32,810 bases of DNA from an uncultured Oscillospiraceae bacterium. Its GTDB lineage: Bacteria; Bacillota; Clostridia; Oscillospirales; CAG-382. Position 1 is the first letter of the stretch, and each line of letters begins with the position of its first letter. The notes under the pieces were generated by a model. The model saw nothing but the letters and a program-made list of their open reading frames with translations. It did not search any database and was not told the DNA's origin. Below are positions 14,157-25,052 of this stretch, one piece after another. The DNA is taken from positions 1 through 32,810 of the forward strand of contig CAZFZL010000001.1 in the NCBI GenBank assembly GCA_964523005.1, in the 5' to 3' direction. The position numbers were made by a program, and so were the translations under genes.

Positions 14157-15110
14157 ATGATTATGGCGGATAGAATACTCGTCGTCGGAAGCGCCAATAT
14201 GGATTTTATCATGAGATGCGACCGTTTGCCCTGTGCAGGCGAGACGATAATGTCCTATGATGGCTACGATTACGCGGCAGGCGGCAAGGGTGCCAACTGT
14301 GCTGTGGCGGCTGCAATGCTCGGCGCAGACGTGTCGTTCTGTACGAGGGTGGGCGAGGACACGCACGGAAAGCGGCTTCGCAAGCTGTATGTCGATTGCG
14401 GCATTGATCCGCGGTTTATACATATCGATTCGGTCATGCAGACGGGACTTGCTGTCGTGATGGTAGAGAGCAGCGGCTCAAACAGGATCGTGGTCTATCC
14501 GGGCGCGAACACGCGCGTGAGCGACCTTGATATAGAGGATGCGTTCACCGCGAATCCGGCGCTTGTGCTGACGCAGTTTGAAATAGGACTCGAAACGGTT
14601 CTGCTGACGGCTAAGCTCGCCGATAAAAAGAACATACCGCTCGTAATAGATGCCGGACCTGCGCGCCGTGATTATCCGCTCGAGCGTATACCGCGCGTCG
14701 AGATATTCAGCCCGAACGAGACTGAGACGGAAATACTCACCGGTATAAAGCCAGTGTCGGTGGAGGACTGTCTGCGCGCGTCGATGGCGCTTTATCAGCG
14801 CACGGAGATGAAATACGTCGTTCTCAAGCTCGGCGACAGAGGCTGCTTTGTGTACGACGGAAAATACTGCGATCTCGTGTCTCCGTTTGACGTTACGGCT
14901 GTCGATACGACGGCTGCCGGCGACGCCTTCACGGCGGCGCTTGCGTACAAATACATAAGCGGCGGCAAGGATATACTCCAGGCGTGCCGTTATGCGAACG
15001 CGGTCGGTGCGCTTACGGTCACGAAGCGCGGCGCCGCTCCCTCTCTTCCGACATCGCAGGATGTTGACGCGTTTCTCAAGGAAAGAAGCGTTTTCGATAC
15101 GGCCGAATGA
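14157..15110 (+). CDS. rbsK: Ribokinase (PfkB family)
   Basis: 317 aa. VVGSANMDF, GGKGANCAVAAAMLG, NETE, DTTAAGDAFTAAL, ANAVGALTVTKRGA. By GAGGAAG spacing, ATG 14163 is the more likely start. Confidence 0.85.
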   Translation: MIMADRILVVGSANMDFIMRCDRLPCAGETIMSYDGYDYAAGGKGANCAVAAAMLGADVSFCTRVGEDTHGKRLRKLYVDCGIDPRFIHIDSVMQTGLAVVMVESSGSNRIVVYPGANTRVSDLDIEDAFTANPALVLTQFEIGLETVLLTAKLADKKNIPLVIDAGPARRDYPLERIPRVEIFSPNETETEILTGIKPVSVEDCLRASMALYQRTEMKYVVLKLGDRGCFVYDGKYCDLVSPFDVTAVDTTAAGDAFTAALAYKYISGGKDILQACRYANAVGALTVTKRGAAPSLPTSQDVDAFLKERSVFDTAE

Positions 15111-16201
15111 TGACGCCGTGCTTTGATACGGGGGCGGATTATTCCGCCTTCGCGGACTCTCTGCTTGCGCTCGAAACGTGGCAGGACAGAATAATCGGCT
15201 CCGGACTGCCCGTGGTGCTGTACGGAACGGGAAAAGGCGCACGGAAAACGACTGCGCTTTTTTTGCGTTCGGGGATAGCGGTGTCCGCTGTCTGTGCAAG
15301 CGAAGGCAGCGCTGCACTCGGCAGCTCGTTTTGCGGAATGCAGGTGAAGACTTATGCGGAATGCGCGAAGGAATTCGGCTCGTTCGTGTGTGTTCCGGCA
15401 TTTGCCGCACGCGGCGACGACATCGCGCTCATAACGGAAATTGCACAAGCGCAGACCGTTGTGATGCCGAATCCGCCGGTGGCAGGCGAGGGCATGTGCG
15501 GAAAAGAAACGCTCGTGCGTTTGGCTGAAACGGCGCGCTTCGTTTACGAACGGCTCGGCGACGGTGAATCACGCAGGGTGCTGTACGAGGTGCTTTCGTT
15601 TGGCATCACCGGCGATATAAATTATCTTGCACGGAAATGTCCGCCGCGGCTCATGACGGTGCATCCGGGAAAACGCTTCATAGACGTCGGCGCTTACGAC
15701 GGCGACACGGCGCTCGAATACGCAAGGCTCTGCCCCGAATACGGCGATATAACGGCGTTTGAGCCGTCAGAAGCCAACTACGCGAAGCTTTGCCGAAGAA
15801 CGGAGGGGCTGCGGATAAAGTGTATTTGTGCGGCGGCGTGGGGGAAGCGCGGCGAGGGGTCTGAGAACGGAAACGACGGCAGAGCCGTCAGCGTCAGCGA
15901 AAAAGGCAGCGGCACAGAGCTGTACGCGCTCGACGGGTTTGGCGAAAACGTCGGGCTCATAAAGATCGACGCCGAGGGCGCGGAACGCGAGGTGCTGTAC
16001 GGCGCGTCAAATACGGTCGCCGCCGGCGGCGACGTGTGCTGCGCTGTGTATCACCGCGCCGACGATATAATAACATTGCCGCGGCTGATGCTGTATTACA
16101 GACCGGACGCGAAAATCTATCTGCGCCGCGAGGAATATCTGCCTGCGTGGGATGTGTTCGCGACGATAACGAAGGAGAACAATGTATGTACGGTGAATTG
16201 A
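15107..16201 (+). CDS. FkbM-family SAM-dependent methyltransferase with N-terminal Rossmann-like extension
   Basis: 364 aa. The ATG overlaps the rbsK TGA (ATGA). C-terminal FkbM signatures: FIDVGAYDGDTALEY, AFEPS, IKIDAEGAEREVL. N-terminal roughly 130 aa contain VVLYGTGKGARK. Confidence 0.7.
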   Translation: MMTPCFDTGADYSAFADSLLALETWQDRIIGSGLPVVLYGTGKGARKTTALFLRSGIAVSAVCASEGSAALGSSFCGMQVKTYAECAKEFGSFVCVPAFAARGDDIALITEIAQAQTVVMPNPPVAGEGMCGKETLVRLAETARFVYERLGDGESRRVLYEVLSFGITGDINYLARKCPPRLMTVHPGKRFIDVGAYDGDTALEYARLCPEYGDITAFEPSEANYAKLCRRTEGLRIKCICAAAWGKRGEGSENGNDGRAVSVSEKGSGTELYALDGFGENVGLIKIDAEGAEREVLYGASNTVAAGGDVCCAVYHRADDIITLPRLMLYYRPDAKIYLRREEYLPAWDVFATITKENNVCTVN

Positions 16202-16891: not shown

Positions 16892-17356
16892 ATGGATGAA
16901 ATCTCGGCAAAAAACAAAGAGCTGAAGGAATGTATCGGACAATACCGCGGCGTGAAGGGCAATCTTATGCCTATAATGCAGAAAGCACAGGAGCTTTTCG
17001 GTTATCTTTCAATGGATACCATGACGCTCATCGCGGACGAACTGAAAATACCGGTAACGGAAGTATACGGCGTTGCGACATTCTACTCGCAGTTTTCGCT
17101 CAATCCGAAGGGTGAGAATGTTGTCAGTGTCTGCACGGGTACGGCCTGCTATGTCAAGGGCGCGTCAGCGATACTTGAACAGGTGCAGTCGGTGCTCGGC
17201 ATAAAGGTCGGTCAGACGACGGCAGACGGAAAATTCTCAATACAGGACACGCGCTGCCTCGGCTGCTGCGGACTCGCGCCGGTAATGGTCATAAACGGAG
17301 ACGTGTACGGACGCCTTGTGCCCGGAGACGTCAAGGGAATTCTTGAAAAGAGATAA
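16892..17356 (+). CDS. hydC: NuoE-like [2Fe-2S] subunit of NAD(P)-linked [FeFe]-hydrogenase (HydC)
   Basis: 154 aa. Thioredoxin-like 2Fe-2S motifs SVCTGTACYVKG and CLGCCGLAPVM. Confidence 0.85.
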   Translation: MDEISAKNKELKECIGQYRGVKGNLMPIMQKAQELFGYLSMDTMTLIADELKIPVTEVYGVATFYSQFSLNPKGENVVSVCTGTACYVKGASAILEQVQSVLGIKVGQTTADGKFSIQDTRCLGCCGLAPVMVINGDVYGRLVPGDVKGILEKR

Positions 17357-17362
17357 CTTTCG

Positions 17363-17704
17363 ATGAAAATCAGCGATATACAGCGTCTGCTTGGTGCAGA
17401 ACTGCTTACGAAAACAGTGAATACCGATCAGGAGGTCTTTTCCGCCTGCGGAAGCGATATGATGAGCGATGTGCTCGCTTTCGTCAAGGAACAGGGCGTG
17501 CTGCTGACGGGGCTGGTGAACTGCCAGGTCGTCAGGACGGCCGACATGATGGATATGGTGTGCGTCGTGTTTGTGCGAGGGAAAAAGCCCTCGCCGGATA
17601 TTATCGCACTCGCGGAGGACTGCGGCATCGCGGTGCTCGCGACGGGAACAAAGATGTTCGAGGCATGCGGCATACTGTACACAAACGGACTTCACAGAAA
17701 ATGA
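17363..17704 (+). CDS. DRTGG-domain protein (copy 1)
   Basis: 113 aa. ACGSDMMSDVLAFV...VLLTGLVN...VVFVRGKKPSPDIIALAEDCGIAVLAT fits the DRTGG fold pattern. 6 nt after hydC. Confidence 0.65.
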   Translation: MKISDIQRLLGAELLTKTVNTDQEVFSACGSDMMSDVLAFVKEQGVLLTGLVNCQVVRTADMMDMVCVVFVRGKKPSPDIIALAEDCGIAVLATGTKMFEACGILYTNGLHRK

Positions 17705-17722
17705 TCGGTATCGGAGGAAGCA

Positions 17723-18148
17723 ATGGGCGAGCCTTATAAGGTAAGCTTCGACGTGGACGGGGAGAACTTTACCTCCGCCGGAGAAGCATCCATTCAGGTC
17801 AAAAAAATATTGCGTCAGCTCGGCTTTGCTCCCGAAACGATACGCCGCGTTTCGATAGCCATGTACGAAGGAGAGATCAACATGGTCATCCACGCCGGCG
17901 GCGGACGCGCGGAGCTTGCCGTTTACGACGATTATATCGAACTCGTGCTCACCGATCACGGGCCGGGGATAGCCGACGTAAACCTTGCTATGCAGGAGGG
18001 CTATTCGACGGCGCTCGAGCAGGTGCGCGCGCTCGGATTCGGAGCGGGCATGGGGCTTCCGAACATGAAAAGGTATACTGACGAGATGATCATAGATACG
18101 AAGCTCGGAGAGGGCACGAGGATCACGATGAGGGTGAAGACGGCATGA
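17723..18148 (+). CDS. RsbW/SpoIIAB-like GHKL ATPase (anti-sigma-type Ser/Thr kinase fold)
   Basis: 141 aa. N box EGEINMVIHA, G1 DHGPGI, G2 GFGAGMGLPNM. No HisKA or sensor domain. GGAGGAAG RBS. Confidence 0.7.
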   Translation: MGEPYKVSFDVDGENFTSAGEASIQVKKILRQLGFAPETIRRVSIAMYEGEINMVIHAGGGRAELAVYDDYIELVLTDHGPGIADVNLAMQEGYSTALEQVRALGFGAGMGLPNMKRYTDEMIIDTKLGEGTRITMRVKTA

Positions 18149-19452
18149 GTGAATATATCCATTCCGTTTCGCTCGACGTGGAAAAATGCAAGGGCTGTAC
18201 CAACTGCCTCAAGCGCTGCCCCACGGAAGCGATCAGCGTCAGGGACGGCCACGCCGAAATAGACGCGTCACGCTGTATCGACTGCGGCGAATGCATCCGC
18301 ATTTGCCCGTATAAAGCAAAAAAAGCAGTATACGATAAGCTTGAAAACGTAAGACAGACGAGCAAATGGCTCATTGCGCTTCCGGCGCCGTCGCTTTACG
18401 GTCAGTTTGACAATCTCGGCGACATCGACTATATAATCCAGGGGCTCAGAGACATCGGCTTCGACGATGTATACGAGGTCAGCGCAGCGGCTGAGATAGT
18501 CTCCGCTTATACGCGGCGCTTTCTAAAGCGTACAGACATAAAAAAACCCGTGATCAGCTCGGCGTGCCCAGTCGTGGTCAGGCTGATAACCCAGCGCTAC
18601 CCGTTCCTTTGCGGCAATATAATGCCGATGCTTCCGCCGGTTGAGATAGCCGCGATGAACGCGAAGGAGCGCGCGCTGAAGCGCCATCCGGAGCTGAAGG
18701 AAGAAGACATATGCGCGTGCTTCATATCGCCGTGCCCTGCAAAGGTGGGATACGTCAAGAACAAGCGCAATAGCGACCGCTCGTACGTGGACGCGGTGGT
18801 GTCGGTCGGCGATGTGTACTTTAAGCTGCTTGACGTTATGAACAAGGCGAAAATGCCGCCTCCCGTGTCCAACACTGGTATAATCGGTATAGGCTGGGCA
18901 TCGACCGGCGGCGAAGCGACAGCGCTTTTCAACGATAAATACCTCGCAGCCGACGGTATAGAAAACGTCATAAAGGTGCTTGAAGAGATAGACAACGACA
19001 ACTTTACCGGGCTTGAATTCATCGAGCTCAACGCCTGCAGCGGCGGCTGTGTCGGCGGCGTTATGACCGTCGAGAACCCGTACATCGCACAGGCGCGTCT
19101 ACAGATGCTCAAGCGCTACCTGCCCGTTTCGCAAAACTGGGTCAGGTCGGAGGGTGAGACGGACGACGGATACATCCCGGACAAATATTTTATTAAAAAC
19201 AATATCGAATACGACCCGACCGCCTATCTTGACAGCGACCGCAACGAAGCGATGAAGAAGATGAAAAAGATAGAAAAGCTCAACGAGACGCTTCCGGCGC
19301 TCGACTGCGGCTTCTGCGGTGCGCCGACCTGCCGCGCTTTTGCGGAGGACGTCGTGCGAAGCGGCGTGAGCGTGGATGACTGCGTTATCCATGTGAGGGA
19401 AATGGTCAAAAAATATAACGAAGAACACAAGAGCACAGGCGAAAACAAGTAA
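18145..19452 (+). CDS. hydS: HydS-type non-canonical (putative sensory, group D / M2e-like) [FeFe]-hydrogenase
   Basis: 435 aa. N-terminal 2x CxxCxxCxxxCP ferredoxin motifs. H-domain has degenerate motifs SSACP (L1), SPCPAK (L2), ELNACSGGCVGGV (L3). C-terminal Cx2Cx4Cx16C (CGFCGAPTC...C). No PAS domain. The ATG overlaps the upstream TGA. Confidence 0.75.
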   Translation: MSEYIHSVSLDVEKCKGCTNCLKRCPTEAISVRDGHAEIDASRCIDCGECIRICPYKAKKAVYDKLENVRQTSKWLIALPAPSLYGQFDNLGDIDYIIQGLRDIGFDDVYEVSAAAEIVSAYTRRFLKRTDIKKPVISSACPVVVRLITQRYPFLCGNIMPMLPPVEIAAMNAKERALKRHPELKEEDICACFISPCPAKVGYVKNKRNSDRSYVDAVVSVGDVYFKLLDVMNKAKMPPPVSNTGIIGIGWASTGGEATALFNDKYLAADGIENVIKVLEEIDNDNFTGLEFIELNACSGGCVGGVMTVENPYIAQARLQMLKRYLPVSQNWVRSEGETDDGYIPDKYFIKNNIEYDPTAYLDSDRNEAMKKMKKIEKLNETLPALDCGFCGAPTCRAFAEDVVRSGVSVDDCVIHVREMVKKYNEEHKSTGENK

Positions 19453-19468
19453 AGAAGGAAGCACGGGA

Positions 19469-19801
19469 ATGAACGTAAAAGAGCTTGCCGAAGCCGAAAA
19501 CCTCGAAATACTTGCGCTTCCGGATCCGAATGCGCAGGCGCAGGGCGTTTATACGGGCGATCTTCTCAGCTATGTCATGGGGCGTGTGAGCGCCGGTGAA
19601 TGCTGGGTGACGATCATGGACAACATCAACGTCCTTGCCGTCGCGTCGCTCGCCGGATGCGCGTGCGTTGTGCTTGCGGAAAACGCACCGGCGTCGGAGG
19701 AGTTTATAAAAACGGCAGAAGCCAAGGACGTCAACGTGCTGCGCAGCTCCGACACATCGGCGAAGCTGTGCTGCGTGCTCGGACGCCGCTTCGGAATGTG
19801 A
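19469..19801 (+). CDS. DRTGG-domain protein (copy 2)
   Basis: 110 aa. YTGDLLSYVMGRV...WVTIMDNINVLAVASLAGCACVVLAENAPASEEFIKTAEAKDVNVL. GAAGGAAG RBS. Confidence 0.6.
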   Translation: MNVKELAEAENLEILALPDPNAQAQGVYTGDLLSYVMGRVSAGECWVTIMDNINVLAVASLAGCACVVLAENAPASEEFIKTAEAKDVNVLRSSDTSAKLCCVLGRRFGM

Positions 19802-19802
19802 T

Positions 19803-20543
19803 ATGTTCATCGATTACAGCTACGACCTTCATATACACTCGTGTCTGTCGCCGTGCGGCGACGAAGATATGACCGTCAACAACATTGCCGGCATGGCGGC
19901 GCTCAACCGATTGAGCATCGCGGCGCTGACAGACCACAACAGCTCGAAAAACTGCCCGGCGTTCTATACGGCGTGCCGCCGCAACGGCGTCGTGCCCGTG
20001 GCAGGCATGGAGCTGACGACGGCGGAGGAAATACATCTGATATGTCTGTTCGAGCTTCTTGAGCAGGCTGCGGAATTTGATGAAAAAGTATACGCGTGCC
20101 TTCCGGACGTGAAAAACCGTGAGAGTATATTCGGACAGCAGCTTATTCTTGACGACTGTGACAACGTGATCGGAAAAGAAGAGAAGCTGCTCATAAACGC
20201 GACGACGCTCTCGCTTGCGGACGCGTGGACGCTCGTGAAAAAATGCGAAGGTGTGTGCTATCCGGCGCATATCGACCGTGAGGCGAACGGCATCGTGGCG
20301 ATACTCGGCACGTTCCCCGAAAAGCCGGAGTTCGGCTTCTATGAGCTTAACAACGCGGATAATTACGATAAATACAGGGAAGAATACCCCATATTGAAAA
20401 AACTGAAAATGCTTTCCTGCTCGGACGCACATTACCTTTATAATATAAACGAAGCCGTAAACACCGTTGCTCTTCCCGACAGGGCGGGCAGCGCTGAAAT
20501 AAGACACGAGCTTTTCGGATATATCAGGGGGCAAACGCAGTGA
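19803..20543 (+). CDS. PHP-domain metal-dependent phosphoesterase
   Basis: 246 aa. PHP motifs DLHIHS, LTDHNS, GMELT, PAHIDR, CSDAH. Starts 1 nt after the upstream stop. Confidence 0.8.
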   Translation: MFIDYSYDLHIHSCLSPCGDEDMTVNNIAGMAALNRLSIAALTDHNSSKNCPAFYTACRRNGVVPVAGMELTTAEEIHLICLFELLEQAAEFDEKVYACLPDVKNRESIFGQQLILDDCDNVIGKEEKLLINATTLSLADAWTLVKKCEGVCYPAHIDREANGIVAILGTFPEKPEFGFYELNNADNYDKYREEYPILKKLKMLSCSDAHYLYNINEAVNTVALPDRAGSAEIRHELFGYIRGQTQ

Positions 20544-21073
20544 GAGAGCTTTCACTCAACATTCTCGACATAGCGCAGAATTCCGTCAAGGCAGGAGCGC
20601 AGCATATCGATATAACGCTCATGGAGACGGATGAGCTGTTCACGTTTGCCGTAAAAGACGATGGCTGCGGGATGAGCGAAGAGCTGCTCGCGCGCGTGAA
20701 AGACCCGTTCACCACCACACGCACCACGCGCAAGGTCGGGCTTGGGATCCCGTTCCTCACGCTTGCTGCCAGACAGACGGGCGGCGACGTGACGATCGAA
20801 TCGTCCGTAAGCCCGAATACGCATGGAACGCTGCTCGAAGCAAGTTTTTATAAAAAGCACATAGACTTCACACCGCTCGGTGATATAATATCGACCGTCG
20901 TAACGCTCATACAGGGCAACCCGGACAGGGACATCACGTTTACTCATGATATGTGCGGGACGGTAATACGGCTTTCGACGGCGGAAATGCGTGAGATGCT
21001 CGGCAGCGTGCCGCTCTCGGAGCCGGACGTGCTCGTGTGGATACGCGAATACCTGACGGAACAATACGGATAA
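20540..21073 (+). CDS. GHKL/HATPase_c ATP-binding protein (kinase catalytic domain only)
   Basis: 177 aa. The GTG start overlaps the PHP stop (GTGA). N box LDIAQNSVKAGA, G1 DDGCGM, G2 GLGIPFL. No phosphoacceptor (HisKA) domain. Confidence 0.7.
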   Translation: MRELSLNILDIAQNSVKAGAQHIDITLMETDELFTFAVKDDGCGMSEELLARVKDPFTTTRTTRKVGLGIPFLTLAARQTGGDVTIESSVSPNTHGTLLEASFYKKHIDFTPLGDIISTVVTLIQGNPDRDITFTHDMCGTVIRLSTAEMREMLGSVPLSEPDVLVWIREYLTEQYG

Positions 21074-21114
21074 ATAAAATAAAATATATAAATCCGAAAG
21101 GAAGAAAAGAAAAC

Positions 21115-21486
21115 ATGAAATCACTCGCTGAACTCGCAGCAATCAAAGAAAGGATGCAGGGCAAGGTCGCGCTTCGCGAAGGCTCGGGAGAAACCCGGAT
21201 CGTCGTAGGCATGGCAACGTGCGGCATCGCGGCAGGCGCAAGGCCGGTGCTCAACACCTTCGTGGAAGAGATAGCGAAAGAAAACCTCACCGACAGAGTT
21301 ACGGTCACTCAGACGGGCTGCATCGGAATATGTCAGTTTGAACCGGTAGTCGAGGTCTACGAAAGCGGCAAGGAAAAGGTCACTTACGTTAAGATGACGG
21401 CGGACAAAGCGAAGAGGGTCGTTGCCGAGCACATCAAGGGCGGCAAGGTCGTTTCCGAGTATACAATAGGAAATACTAAGATATAG
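21115..21486 (+). CDS. Thioredoxin-like [2Fe-2S] ferredoxin (HydD-like small subunit)
   Basis: 123 aa from ATG 21115 (GGAAG RBS). VVGMATCGIAAGA ... GCIGICQFEPVV. Confidence 0.8.
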   Translation: MKSLAELAAIKERMQGKVALREGSGETRIVVGMATCGIAAGARPVLNTFVEEIAKENLTDRVTVTQTGCIGICQFEPVVEVYESGKEKVTYVKMTADKAKRVVAEHIKGGKVVSEYTIGNTKI

Positions 21487-21499
21487 GAGAACATGACAG

Positions 21500-23290
21500 A
21501 TGATTCGTGCACATGTAATGATCTGCGGCGGCACAGGCTGCACATCCTCAGGCAGCGACAAGCTCGCGGCGGCGCTTGAAACAGAGCTTAAGACGAGAGG
21601 GCTTGAGGAAGAAATAAAGGTCGTAAGGACAGGCTGCTTCGGCCTGTGCGCGCTCGGCCCGATAATGATAGTTTATCCCGACGGTACGTTTTACATCAGG
21701 GTAACGCCTGATGATATTCCTGAGATCGTCGAAGAACACCTGCTCAAGGGCAGAGTCGTGCAGAGACTCGTCTATGACGATTCCGGCGTACCGGACATCA
21801 AGGCGAACTCGCTCAACGAGACGGGCTTCTATAAGAAGCAGAAGAGAGTCGCGCTGCGCAACTGCGGCGTTATCAACCCCGAAGAAATCGACGAGTACAT
21901 AGCTCTCGACGGTTACAGAGCGCTCGGTAAAGTTCTTACCGAAATGACTCCGGACCAGGTCATCCAGACCATTCTCGACAGCGGGCTGCGCGGCAGAGGC
22001 GGCGGCGGATTCCCGACCGGCCGTAAATGGATGTTTGCCGCGAAGGTACCGTCCGACAAGAAATATGTCGTATGTAACGCCGATGAGGGCGACCCCGGCG
22101 CATTCATGGACCGTTCGGTGCTTGAAGGCGATCCGCACGCAGTCATAGAGGCTATGGCTATTGCAGGCTATGCGATAGGCGCAGACGAAGGCTATATCTA
22201 CGTCAGAGCCGAATACCCGATAGCTATCAAACGCCTTGAGATCGCAATACGCGAGGCGCGCGAATACAATTTGCTCGGCAAGGACATATTCGGCACAGGC
22301 TTCAACTTCGACATCACGCTTCGCTTCGGCGCAGGCGCGTTCGTCTGCGGTGAAGAAACGGCGCTGCTCACCTCGATAGAAGGCAAGCGCGGCGAGCCGC
22401 GTCCGAGACCTCCGTTCCCGGCGGTCAAGGGTCTGTTCGGTCAGCCTACGATAATCAATAACGTTGAAACACTCGCAAACATCGCACAGATTATACTCAA
22501 GGGCGCGGACTGGTTCGCTTCCATGGGTACTGAAAAGTCGAAGGGCACGAAGGTCTTTGCGCTCGGCGGCAAGATAAACCACACCGGACTCGTTGAGATC
22601 CCGATGGGCACGACGCTGCGCGAGATAATATATGACATCGGCGGCGGTATCCCGAACGGCAAGAAATTCAAGGCGGCTCAGACCGGCGGCCCGTCCGGCG
22701 GCTGTATCCCGGCTTCGCATCTTGACACGCCGATCGATTACGATTCGCTCATAGCTATCGGCTCGATGATGGGTTCAGGCGGACTTATCGTCATGGATGA
22801 AGACAACTGCATGGTCGACATAGCGAAATTCTTCCTTGAATTCACGGTCGACGAATCGTGCGGCAAATGCGCACCGTGCCGTATCGGTACAAGAAGGATG
22901 CTTGAGATACTCGAACGCATAACGAACGGTCAGGGTCAGGACGGCGATATCGAGAAGCTCGAAGAGCTTGCCATGAATATAAAAACATCGGCGCTCTGCG
23001 GACTCGGTCAGACGGCTCCGAACCCGGTGCTCAGCACGCTGCGGTATTTCCGCGACGAATACGAAGCTCATATCTATGAGAAACGCTGCCCGGCGCACCA
23101 CTGCAAGAAGCTTGCCGTGATCTCCATCAATCCGGAAAAATGCAAGGGCTGCTCCGCGTGCTCGCGCGCATGTCCGGTAGAAGCTATCAGCGGCGAGATA
23201 AAGAAGCCGTTCGTCATAGACCAGTCCAAGTGCATCAAGTGCCGCACCTGCATTGATAAGTGCAGATTCGGTGCGATAGAAATAAAGTAA
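21500..23290 (+). CDS. hydB: NuoF-like flavoprotein subunit of bifurcating-type [FeFe]-hydrogenase (HydB)
   Basis: 596 aa. N-terminal 2Fe-2S (ICGGTGC...GCFGLCALGP). FMN/NADH site GRGGGGFPTGRKW. N3-type CGKCAPCRIG. Two C-terminal CxxCxxCxxxC ferredoxin motifs. Confidence 0.9.
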   Translation: MIRAHVMICGGTGCTSSGSDKLAAALETELKTRGLEEEIKVVRTGCFGLCALGPIMIVYPDGTFYIRVTPDDIPEIVEEHLLKGRVVQRLVYDDSGVPDIKANSLNETGFYKKQKRVALRNCGVINPEEIDEYIALDGYRALGKVLTEMTPDQVIQTILDSGLRGRGGGGFPTGRKWMFAAKVPSDKKYVVCNADEGDPGAFMDRSVLEGDPHAVIEAMAIAGYAIGADEGYIYVRAEYPIAIKRLEIAIREAREYNLLGKDIFGTGFNFDITLRFGAGAFVCGEETALLTSIEGKRGEPRPRPPFPAVKGLFGQPTIINNVETLANIAQIILKGADWFASMGTEKSKGTKVFALGGKINHTGLVEIPMGTTLREIIYDIGGGIPNGKKFKAAQTGGPSGGCIPASHLDTPIDYDSLIAIGSMMGSGGLIVMDEDNCMVDIAKFFLEFTVDESCGKCAPCRIGTRRMLEILERITNGQGQDGDIEKLEELAMNIKTSALCGLGQTAPNPVLSTLRYFRDEYEAHIYEKRCPAHHCKKLAVISINPEKCKGCSACSRACPVEAISGEIKKPFVIDQSKCIKCRTCIDKCRFGAIEIK

Positions 23291-23303: not shown

Positions 23304-25052
23304 ATGATGAACACAGTAAATATAACCATTGACGGCATCAAAGTGACGGTTCCTGCCGATTACACTGTGCTTGAAGCCGCGAAGGAAGCAAAGGTATATA
23401 TACCTACGCTCTGCTACCTCAAGGGCATCAACCAGATAGGCGCGTGCCGCATGTGTCTTGTTGAGGCATCGGGAACGAGAGGGCTTGCCGCCGCGTGCGT
23501 GCTGCCCGTTACCGACGGCATGACGGTCACGACGAACAACGATAAGATACGCAAGGCAAGAAAATCCACACTCGAGCTGCTTCTCTCAAACCACAACAGA
23601 GAATGCACGTCCTGCATCAGATCAAGAAACTGCGAATTTCAGACGCTCTGCAACGAATACGGCGTTGACGGATACCCGTACGACGGCGCGAAGACGGAAT
23701 CGACGATCGATGACGTCAGCCCGTCAATCGTCAGAGACAACAGCAAATGTATACTCTGCCGCCGCTGTGTTGCAGCGTGCAACGACGTTCAGAAGATAGG
23801 CGCGATAGGCGTCGGACGCAGAGGCTTCAAGACGAGAGTCGGATGCATCTACGACAAGTCGCTCGCCGATTCACCGTGCGTTAACTGCGGACAGTGCATC
23901 GCCGCGTGCCCGACGGGCGCGCTCCACGAAAAGGACAGCACGGCAGACGTTTGGAAGGCACTTGCCGATCCGGATAAATATGTCGTCGTTCAGCCCGCGC
24001 CTGCCGTAAGAGCAGCGCTCGGCGAAGAATTCGGAATGCCGGTCGGAACGTGTGTCACGGGCAAGCTTGCGGCTTCGCTTCGCCGTCTCGGCTTTGATAA
24101 GGTGTTCGACACTGACTTCGCTGCCGACCTTACGATCATGGAAGAGGGCACGGAATTCCTCGGAAGGATCAAGAATAACGGTGTGCTTCCGATGATCACG
24201 TCATGCTCGCCCGGCTGGATCAAATACTGCGAGACGTTCTACCCCGAATTTATACCGAACCTCAGCTCCTGCAAATCACCGCACGAGATGATGGGTGCTG
24301 TAATAAAAACGTATTTTGCCGAAAAGAACAACATCGATCCCGAAAAGATATACACTGTATCGGTCATGCCTTGCACCGCGAAGAAGTTTGAAGCAAAGCG
24401 CGGCGAGCTCGGACGTGACGGCATACAGGACGTTGACGCCGTTATCACGACCCGCGAGCTCGCGAGGATGATAAGAACGGCAGGCATCGATTTCACGGAG
24501 CTTGACGACGAGGATTTCGACGATGTGCTCGGCGAATCGACCGGCGCAGGTGTCATATTCGGAGCTACGGGCGGCGTTATGGAAGCGGCTCTTCGTACAG
24601 TGTACGAGGTCGTCACCGGAAAGACGCTCGAAAACGTCAACTTTGAGGCTGTAAGAGGAACCGAAGGCGTTAAGGAAGCGACGATCGACGTCGGCGGCAC
24701 CCCCGTAAGAGTGGCTGTCGCGAACGGTACGGGAAATGCTTCAGCACTGCTTGAAAAGGTCAAGAGCGGCGAGAAGCATTACGATTTCATCGAGATCATG
24801 GGCTGCCCGGGTGGCTGCGTGACCGGCGGCGGTCAGCCGATACTCACCGCGAAGCAGCAGCTTTCGCTCGACGCGAAAACGCTCAGAGCATCGGCTCTCT
24901 ACAAAGAAGACGAGGGCAAGACGCTCCGCAAGTCGCACGAGAACCCCTCCATCAAAAAAATCTACGCGGAATTCTTTGGAGAGCCTAACAGCCATAAAGC
25001 GCACGAGCTTCTTCATACATCATATGTACCGAGGAAGAAATACAACATCTGA
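23304..25052 (+). CDS. hydA: [FeFe]-hydrogenase catalytic subunit (HydA, M3/CpI-like architecture)
   Basis: 582 aa. 2Fe-2S (CYLKG..GACRMCLVE), His-ligated 4Fe-4S (HNRECTSCIRSRNC), two ferredoxin motifs. H-cluster motifs MPCTAKKFE and EIMGCPGGCVTGGGQP. L1 reads TSCSPGW instead of TSCCPGW. Confidence 0.9.
   Translation: MMNTVNITIDGIKVTVPADYTVLEAAKEAKVYIPTLCYLKGINQIGACRMCLVEASGTRGLAAACVLPVTDGMTVTTNNDKIRKARKSTLELLLSNHNRECTSCIRSRNCEFQTLCNEYGVDGYPYDGAKTESTIDDVSPSIVRDNSKCILCRRCVAACNDVQKIGAIGVGRRGFKTRVGCIYDKSLADSPCVNCGQCIAACPTGALHEKDSTADVWKALADPDKYVVVQPAPAVRAALGEEFGMPVGTCVTGKLAASLRRLGFDKVFDTDFAADLTIMEEGTEFLGRIKNNGVLPMITSCSPGWIKYCETFYPEFIPNLSSCKSPHEMMGAVIKTYFAEKNNIDPEKIYTVSVMPCTAKKFEAKRGELGRDGIQDVDAVITTRELARMIRTAGIDFTELDDEDFDDVLGESTGAGVIFGATGGVMEAALRTVYEVVTGKTLENVNFEAVRGTEGVKEATIDVGGTPVRVAVANGTGNASALLEKVKSGEKHYDFIEIMGCPGGCVTGGGQPILTAKQQLSLDAKTLRASALYKEDEGKTLRKSHENPSIKKIYAEFFGEPNSHKAHELLHTSYVPRKKYNI

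Follow-up and report, generated by a model that had tools for sequence, protein, structure and literature searches.

Can an [FeFe]-hydrogenase work with a serine at the place of a cysteine ligand of its H-cluster? The question is raised by hydA, a gene in a 32,810-nucleotide stretch (hereafter the window; positions 1 to 32,810 of contig CAZFZL010000001.1, assembly GCA_964523005.1) from an uncultured Oscillospiraceae bacterium, in which the L1 motif of the H-domain reads TSCSPGW instead of TSCCPGW. We find that this variant is a real, known and lineage-conserved natural form with a solved active representative, HydA1 of Acetobacterium woodii. By analogy with that protein, HydA is very probably the catalytic subunit of an A. 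woodii-type HydABC complex, an active enzyme in which Ser302 would be a natural ligand of the [4Fe-4S] part of the H-cluster ([4Fe-4S]H). The features of the gene on which the argument turns are the following.

23304..25052, + strand: hydA, catalytic subunit of an M3-type group A [FeFe]-hydrogenase, 582 aa (uninterrupted open reading frame (ORF); Pfam, NCBIfam and Protein Data Bank (PDB) matches).
24198..24218, + strand: L1 motif T299-S300-C301-S302-P303-G304-W305, codons acg tca tgc tcg ccc ggc tgg (sequence; ungapped alignment to CpI of Clostridium pasteurianum and to HydA1 of Thermoanaerobacter kivui and A. woodii).
24204..24206, + strand: codon tgc, Cys301, the proton-relay cysteine (CpI C299), kept (alignment; invariant in alignment A1).
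24207..24209, + strand: codon tcg, Ser302, equivalent to CpI Cys300, A. woodii Ser301 and C115 (mature numbering) of the algal enzyme CrHydA1; putative O-ligand of [4Fe-4S]H.
24228..24230, + strand: codon tgc, Cys309, the +7 cysteine in KYCE, within helix 304-312, dispensable for the Ser variant (secondary structure of an AlphaFold2 (AF2) model; Ile in A. woodii).
24366..24392, + strand: L2 motif MPCTAKKFE, residues 355-363, canonical, with Cys357 as cluster ligand.
24792..24839, + strand: L3 motif EIMGCPGGCVTGGGQP, residues 497-512, canonical, with Cys501 as ligand and Cys505 as bridging ligand.

The bases and the ORF, which has no internal stops, encode T-S-C-S-P-G-W within the flanks PMITSCSPGWIKYCETFYPEFIPNLSSCKSP, just as a preliminary description of this DNA had read them; the database cluster representative of HydA begins one Met later and is 581 aa long. 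Pfam domains Fer2_4, NADH-G_4Fe-4S_3, two copies of Fer4, Fe_hyd_lg_C and Fe_hyd_SSU constitute the M3 architecture of CpI-like and HydABC-type HydA, and the first four supply the F-cluster set expected of the latter type ([2Fe-2S], His-ligated [4Fe-4S] and two [4Fe-4S]). The H-domain matches PF02906 (Fe_hyd_lg_C) over its full length (2.1e-102) and the C-terminus matches PF02256 (2.3e-26). HydA scores 562.5 bits against TIGR02512 (cutoff 405.95) and 924.7 bits against NCBIfam NF040763 (FeFe_hydrog_A6, 'NADH-dependent [FeFe] hydrogenase, group A6'; cutoff 765), covering profile positions 1-571 of 571. The top PDB match is 7q4v_A, A. woodii HydA1 (E 8.8e-234). Both the L2 pattern MPCxxKxxE and the L3 pattern ExMxCxxGCxxGGGQP are present, so the other H-cluster motifs are canonical, as previously described. 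Compared with TSCCPxW, the L1 of HydA has the relay Cys, and the ligand Cys is replaced by Ser; since the literature accepts Ser as a natural alternative at this position, Ser302 does not bar HydA from the group A [FeFe]-hydrogenases.

Which of the two L1 cysteines is replaced depends on the alignment register. In CpI, protons are relayed by C299, and C300 ligates [4Fe-4S]H. The phmmer alignments of HydA to CpI (pmftsccpgwvrqae) and T. kivui HydA1 (pmftsccpswil) run without a gap through more than 90 residues before and after L1. They therefore place Ser302 at the second Cys of TSCCP (CpI C300, T. kivui C299) and pair Cys301 with the first, in agreement with the earlier assignment of the serine to the ligand position and of the retained cysteine to the relay. 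The same ungapped alignment shows that the proton pathway is intact: C301, E281, S321, E284 and R288 correspond to CpI C299, E279, S319, E282 and R286. A HydS-like paralogue encoded in the same genome (18145-19452) reads SSACP at L1, with the first Cys gone and the second kept. Loss of the first L1 Cys with retention of the second is what is expected of sensory hydrogenases, and the paralogue thus confirms the second L1 Cys as the ligand position. In the mature numbering of CrHydA1, likewise, C115 is the ligand and C114 its neighbour (Kertess et al. 2017, PMC5855289).

A serine at this position has a characterized precedent. A. woodii HydA1 (7q4v_A) reads ITSCSPGWIKF at L1, and its Ser301 was described as a cluster ligand that leaves the infrared (IR) signature of the H-cluster and the activity unaffected (Katsyv et al. 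2023, PMC10021017). In the same study, the HydABC complexes of A. woodii and T. kivui were both active and bidirectional. A. woodii HydA1, part of HydABC(D) (PDB 7q4v, 7q4w and 8a5e), has the same M3 architecture as HydA (583 versus 582 aa) and the same ITSCSPGWIK, and is 62 % identical in the H-domain; at +7 it has Ile where HydA has Cys309. A. woodii is an acetogen, whereas our sequence comes from a gut/rumen-type MAG (metagenome-assembled genome) of uncultured Clostridia. T. kivui HydA1 (8a6t; 58 % H-domain identity) and Thermotoga maritima HydA (7p5h), also from bifurcating HydABC, share enzyme type and domain layout with HydA but have the canonical TSCCP and an all-Cys [4Fe-4S]H. CpI (1feh, 3c8y and 4xdc) has the M3 architecture, collinear L1, L2 and L3 and the same proton pathway at 51 % H-domain identity, but is monomeric and ferredoxin-dependent and carries TSCCPGW with Cys300 as ligand. 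Of the explanations offered in the preliminary description, Ser-O ligation is thus the one backed by the A. woodii structure. Its view that TSCCPGW is near-invariant and a ligand Ser very unusual does not stand. According to Kertess et al. 2017 (PMC5855289), who cite Winkler, Esselborn and Happe 2013, Ser occupies the second-Cys position in about 20 % of HydA sequences. In agreement with that figure, our exhaustive search of 50 %-identity clusters gave 119 representatives with a complete H-domain, of which 19 (16 %) have Ser at the ligand column, and the whole clade surrounding HydA is Ser-type. A literature search on 'TSCSP' brought up one paper alone, a 2013 work on Melainabacteria that touches on TSCSPGW hydrogenases in passing.

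Lineage conservation of the motif, a check that the preliminary description had called for, was found at every level considered. TSCSPGW is present in all 121 nearest relatives, taken as representatives of 90 %-identity clusters with 74-100 % identity to HydA, and in 29 of 30 best-match orthologues from 30 genomes of 17 families of the same order, the exception (L033) having TSCCPGW. Among 80 named genome loci, hosted by uncultured gut and rumen Clostridia (Oscillospiraceae, Ruminococcus, Lachnospiraceae, Christensenellaceae and Monoglobaceae), 77 have TSCSP(G/A)W and the remaining three are regex misfires. The column of Ser302 is invariant Ser in alignment A1, and the ligand Ser occurs in 109 of the 110 fetched loci (L005-L114). 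Across these loci all six Ser codons are used (TCA 33, TCT 26, TCG 17, TCC 13, AGC 13, AGT 7), next to a single TGC in a revertant. The AGY users form a subclade, and a single step separates four of the codons (TCT, TCC, AGT and AGC) from Cys. Single steps via TGY (Cys) also join the TCN family to the AGY family, a path that would fit toggling between Ser and Cys. HydA itself is constrained, with ratios of nonsynonymous to synonymous substitution rates (dN/dS) of 0.04-0.12, and 0.05 against the same-genus orthologue. Based on the conservation across representatives, orthologues of the same order and loci and on the use of all six codons, the Ser at the ligand site is an old and maintained state.

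To place HydA among its homologs, we used an H-domain tree of 173 sequences, non-redundant at 80 % identity, from which the trait column had been taken out. HydA groups with A. woodii HydA1 in a clade made up of Ser-type sequences only, at the starred support level (95). This clade is nested in a larger one of 68 rows (support 96), 59 of them Ser and 9 Cys; T. kivui HydA1 and CpI lie outside the larger clade, among Cys-type sequences. The Ser/Cys state changes 18 times on the best tree, at least seven of these changes being forced by strongly supported branches, and one Ser group is sister to the monomeric CpI. Two TSCCPGW revertants, L033 (G020:C131) and protein P0126, are nested in otherwise all-Ser clades (support 98 and 91, respectively). 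They represent naturally occurring replacements of Ser by Cys within a Ser-type background and would be useful for comparative biochemistry.

By analogy with A. woodii HydA1, the complex would be an NADH- and ferredoxin-linked HydABC, electron-bifurcating or confurcating. Ogamma of Ser302 would stand in for the Cys300 thiolate of CpI as the first ligand of [4Fe-4S]H, the remaining three being Cys357, Cys501 and the bridging Cys505. Cys301 would still relay protons to the [2Fe] subsite, with E281, E284, R288 and S321 completing the pathway, and HydA should carry a normal H-cluster and be catalytically active. Sequence, register, lineage conservation and subunit context were computed here; Ser ligation, a normal Fourier-transform IR spectrum and activity come from the literature on A. 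woodii, from which we infer the same ligation and activity for the enzyme of the uncultured organism.

The neighbouring genes supply the partners of such a complex.

16892..17356, + strand: hydC, NuoE-like [2Fe-2S] subunit (best PDB match 7q4v_C, E 3.3e-52).
17363..21073, + strand: regulatory cassette with, in order, DRTGG-like, GHKL ATPase, HydS-like, DRTGG-like, PHP and GHKL ATPase genes (ORFs; Pfam PHP and HATPase_c).
18145-19452, + strand: HydS-like paralogue, 435 aa, with L1 SSACP, L2 SPCPAK and L3 ELNACSGGCVGG (Fe_hyd_lg_C match 18370-19059).
21037..21486, + strand: small thioredoxin-like [2Fe-2S] protein in the HydD position (Pfam 2Fe-2S_thioredx, NCBIfam fdxn_Clost).
21500..23290, + strand: hydB, NuoF-like flavoprotein subunit with an N-terminal [2Fe-2S] and C-terminal two [4Fe-4S] domains (Pfam; best PDB match 7q4v_B, E 5.2e-296).

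The match to 7q4v_B spans HydB residues 3-593, and the translation contains GGPSGG; the GGPSG motif of HydB has been tied to bifurcating enzymes (Losey et al., PMC7311640). Given the domain and PDB matches of HydB, HydC and HydA, all three best matched by the A. woodii complex, and the GGPSG motif, the locus is, on sequence grounds, an A. woodii-type HydABC operon. The operon logic is also alike, since in A. woodii, too, hydC and hydB are separated by genes for a small [2Fe-2S] protein and for a GHKL ATPase. The operon considered here differs in its larger regulatory cassette, which includes the HydS-like gene, and in that no HydEFG was detected in the assembly. The true start of the small [2Fe-2S] protein is probably an internal ATG near 21115. 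In L1 of the HydS-like protein, whose gene sits in the cassette between hydC and hydB, the relay Cys is replaced by Ala and the ligand Cys is kept. Two further Fe_hyd_lg_C paralogues are encoded about 3 kb apart on contig C14 of the same MAG (G000), at 15010-15660 (L003) and 18306-18989 (L002); one of the two has an SSCCPAF L1 (478-aa frame) and the other is without a recognisable L1 (561-aa frame). Among the representative library, protein P0122 (4122 aa) contains seven separate HydA-like stretches (2064 bits) and represents a giant fusion of several hydrogenases or else an error of assembly or gene calling.

Several results weigh against a working, Ser-ligated HydA. The engineered CrHydA1 variant C115S, one of a set (C115S/D/A) altered at the same second Cys of TSCCP, retains little of its [4Fe-4S] cluster and no activity (Kertess et al. 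2017, PMC5855289), and the structural maps of A. woodii HydABC are cryo-electron microscopy maps. Neither hidden Markov model (HMM) searches nor local tblastn with same-genus proteins found the maturases HydE, HydF or HydG in the MAG. Finally, when H-domain columns were ranked by their association with the Ser state and tested on phylogenetically independent pairs (6 supported pairs), none showed a significant compensating substitution (median p ≥0.5). The natural Ser-type A. woodii enzyme, in contrast to C115S, is fully loaded and active, and the cluster loss in the algal protein suggests that Ser ligation depends on context. The lost cluster of C115S and the missing maturases would also suit an inactive or non-catalytic HydA, either because the gene is decaying or because the protein is an electron-transfer scaffold that lacks the [2Fe] subsite. 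We consider this very unlikely, because L1, L2, L3 and the proton-pathway residues are all intact, dN/dS against the same-genus orthologue is low, the gene resides in an intact HydABC operon and the A. woodii homologue is active (PMC10021017); in addition, the completeness of the MAG is only 87 %, and hydE-hydG-hydF do occur in genomes of the same genus. The inactive enzyme considered in the preliminary description is contradicted by the same evidence. As to a sequencing or assembly error in the MAG, the chance is negligible: the 121 nearest relatives, which were assembled independently, all carry the Ser, as do the fetched loci with one exception, and this excludes an error for practical purposes. 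The preliminary description was right to doubt such an error, although its argument that two base changes would be needed is weak, TGC to TCC being one step and all six Ser codons occurring at the site.

It had also been suggested that a downstream cysteine, Cys309 of KYCE, takes the place of Ser302 as fourth ligand of the cluster. A Cys at +7 is indeed found in 48 of 67 Ser-type but only 8 of 91 Cys-type sequences of the non-redundant set, and is at least 90 % conserved in alignment A1. Yet the H-cluster of A. woodii HydA1, in which Ser is modelled as ligand, is normal and active despite the +7 Ile, and 19 of the 67 Ser-type sequences, A. woodii included, have I, M, A, V, G or L there (e.g. 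L029, L070, L083 and L100). The association fails on phylogenetically independent pairs (median p 0.5), and in the AF2 model of HydA (pLDDT, the predicted local distance difference test score, 86.3; pTM, the predicted template modelling score, 0.88) C309 lies in the middle of helix 304-312, two turns from S302, whereas C301-S302-P303 form a loop after strand 297-300. We therefore reject Cys309 as a substitute ligand and regard its recruitment as extremely improbable. The columns most associated with the Ser state are 298 (I vs F), 309 (C vs V/A), 217, 229, 291 and 247. Ile298 (24195-24197), at -4, is Ile in 58 of 67 Ser-type sequences, and the column is Phe in 70 of 91 Cys-type ones. In raw counts Ile298 and Cys309 track the Ser state, and they may be clade markers. 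A different proposal, compatible with Ser302 as a natural ligand and refining that explanation, is that Ser is selected and not merely tolerated: an O-ligand beside the relay Cys would retune the potential or protonation of [4Fe-4S]H and shift the bias of HydABC-type enzymes. We regard this as possible, if doubtful. Ser is found in 51 of 53 clade rows of the non-redundant tree, and its persistence in the fetched loci through codons one step from Cys, despite heavy synonymous turnover, argues for purifying selection for Ser; moreover, engineered changes at other ligand positions of HydA1 shift the bias (PMC5855289). On the other hand, the Ser-type A. woodii and Cys-type T. kivui HydABC are similar in IR signature and activity (PMC10021017), the repeated Ser/Cys changes on the tree, including the Cys revertants and the Ser group sister to CpI, mean that the state is not bound to one enzyme type, and epistatic entrenchment would give the same conservation without functional tuning. 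Rather unlikely, in our view, is the specific form in which Ser is an adaptive and now entrenched retuning of [4Fe-4S]H, with the ancestral and chemically 'better' Cys selected against in the HydABC clade. If it were true, the O-ligated cubane would alter the cluster potential or permit redox-linked protonation beside the relay Cys, and bifurcating hydrogenases would owe part of their reversibility or bias to it.

The missing maturases extend beyond this MAG, which comprises 1.56 Mb in 178 contigs. Two same-genus MAGs carry a hydE-hydG-hydF cluster, and within a 14-genome subset the three genes occur either together as one cluster or not at all. In a set of 41 genomes of relatives (G000-G040), a close HydA orthologue is present in 39 and HydG in 17; restricted to the 36 genomes that are at least 90 % complete, the respective numbers are 34 and 14. 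The absence is mostly uniform within a genus and includes genomes that are 99-100 % complete in 9-20 contigs. The dN/dS of HydA is 0.04-0.12 in pairs from maturase-less genera versus 0.04-0.13 in maturase-bearing pairs. More than half of the related genomes, probably including the present MAG, have a constrained HydABC operon without HydE, HydF and HydG. A Hyp-based substitute for HydG does not explain the pattern, because HypD is absent in 11 of the 12 maturase-less genomes tested; it is present in one genome of each class. Nor is the Ser state tied to the presence of maturases: TSCSP occurs in genomes with and without them, and the genome of the TSCCP revertant G020 is also without HydG. HydA without maturases has been published for archaea and some protists, and an alternative maturation route has been proposed (PMC11216029); a brief literature search found no bacterial report of HydABC without HydE, HydF and HydG. 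A constrained HydABC of this kind would carry the question of maturase-independent H-cluster assembly over to bacteria, and this side observation may matter more than the Ser variant itself.

For annotation, TSCSPGW is not a defect but the mark of A. woodii-type HydA, a lineage abundant in Clostridia of the gut and rumen, and genes with this motif should count as functional hydrogenases. For enzymology, natural Ser-type enzymes are active where the engineered Cys-to-Ser change costs HydA1 its cluster, and the Ser-type clade supplies many natural sequences in which to find what makes Ser ligation viable.

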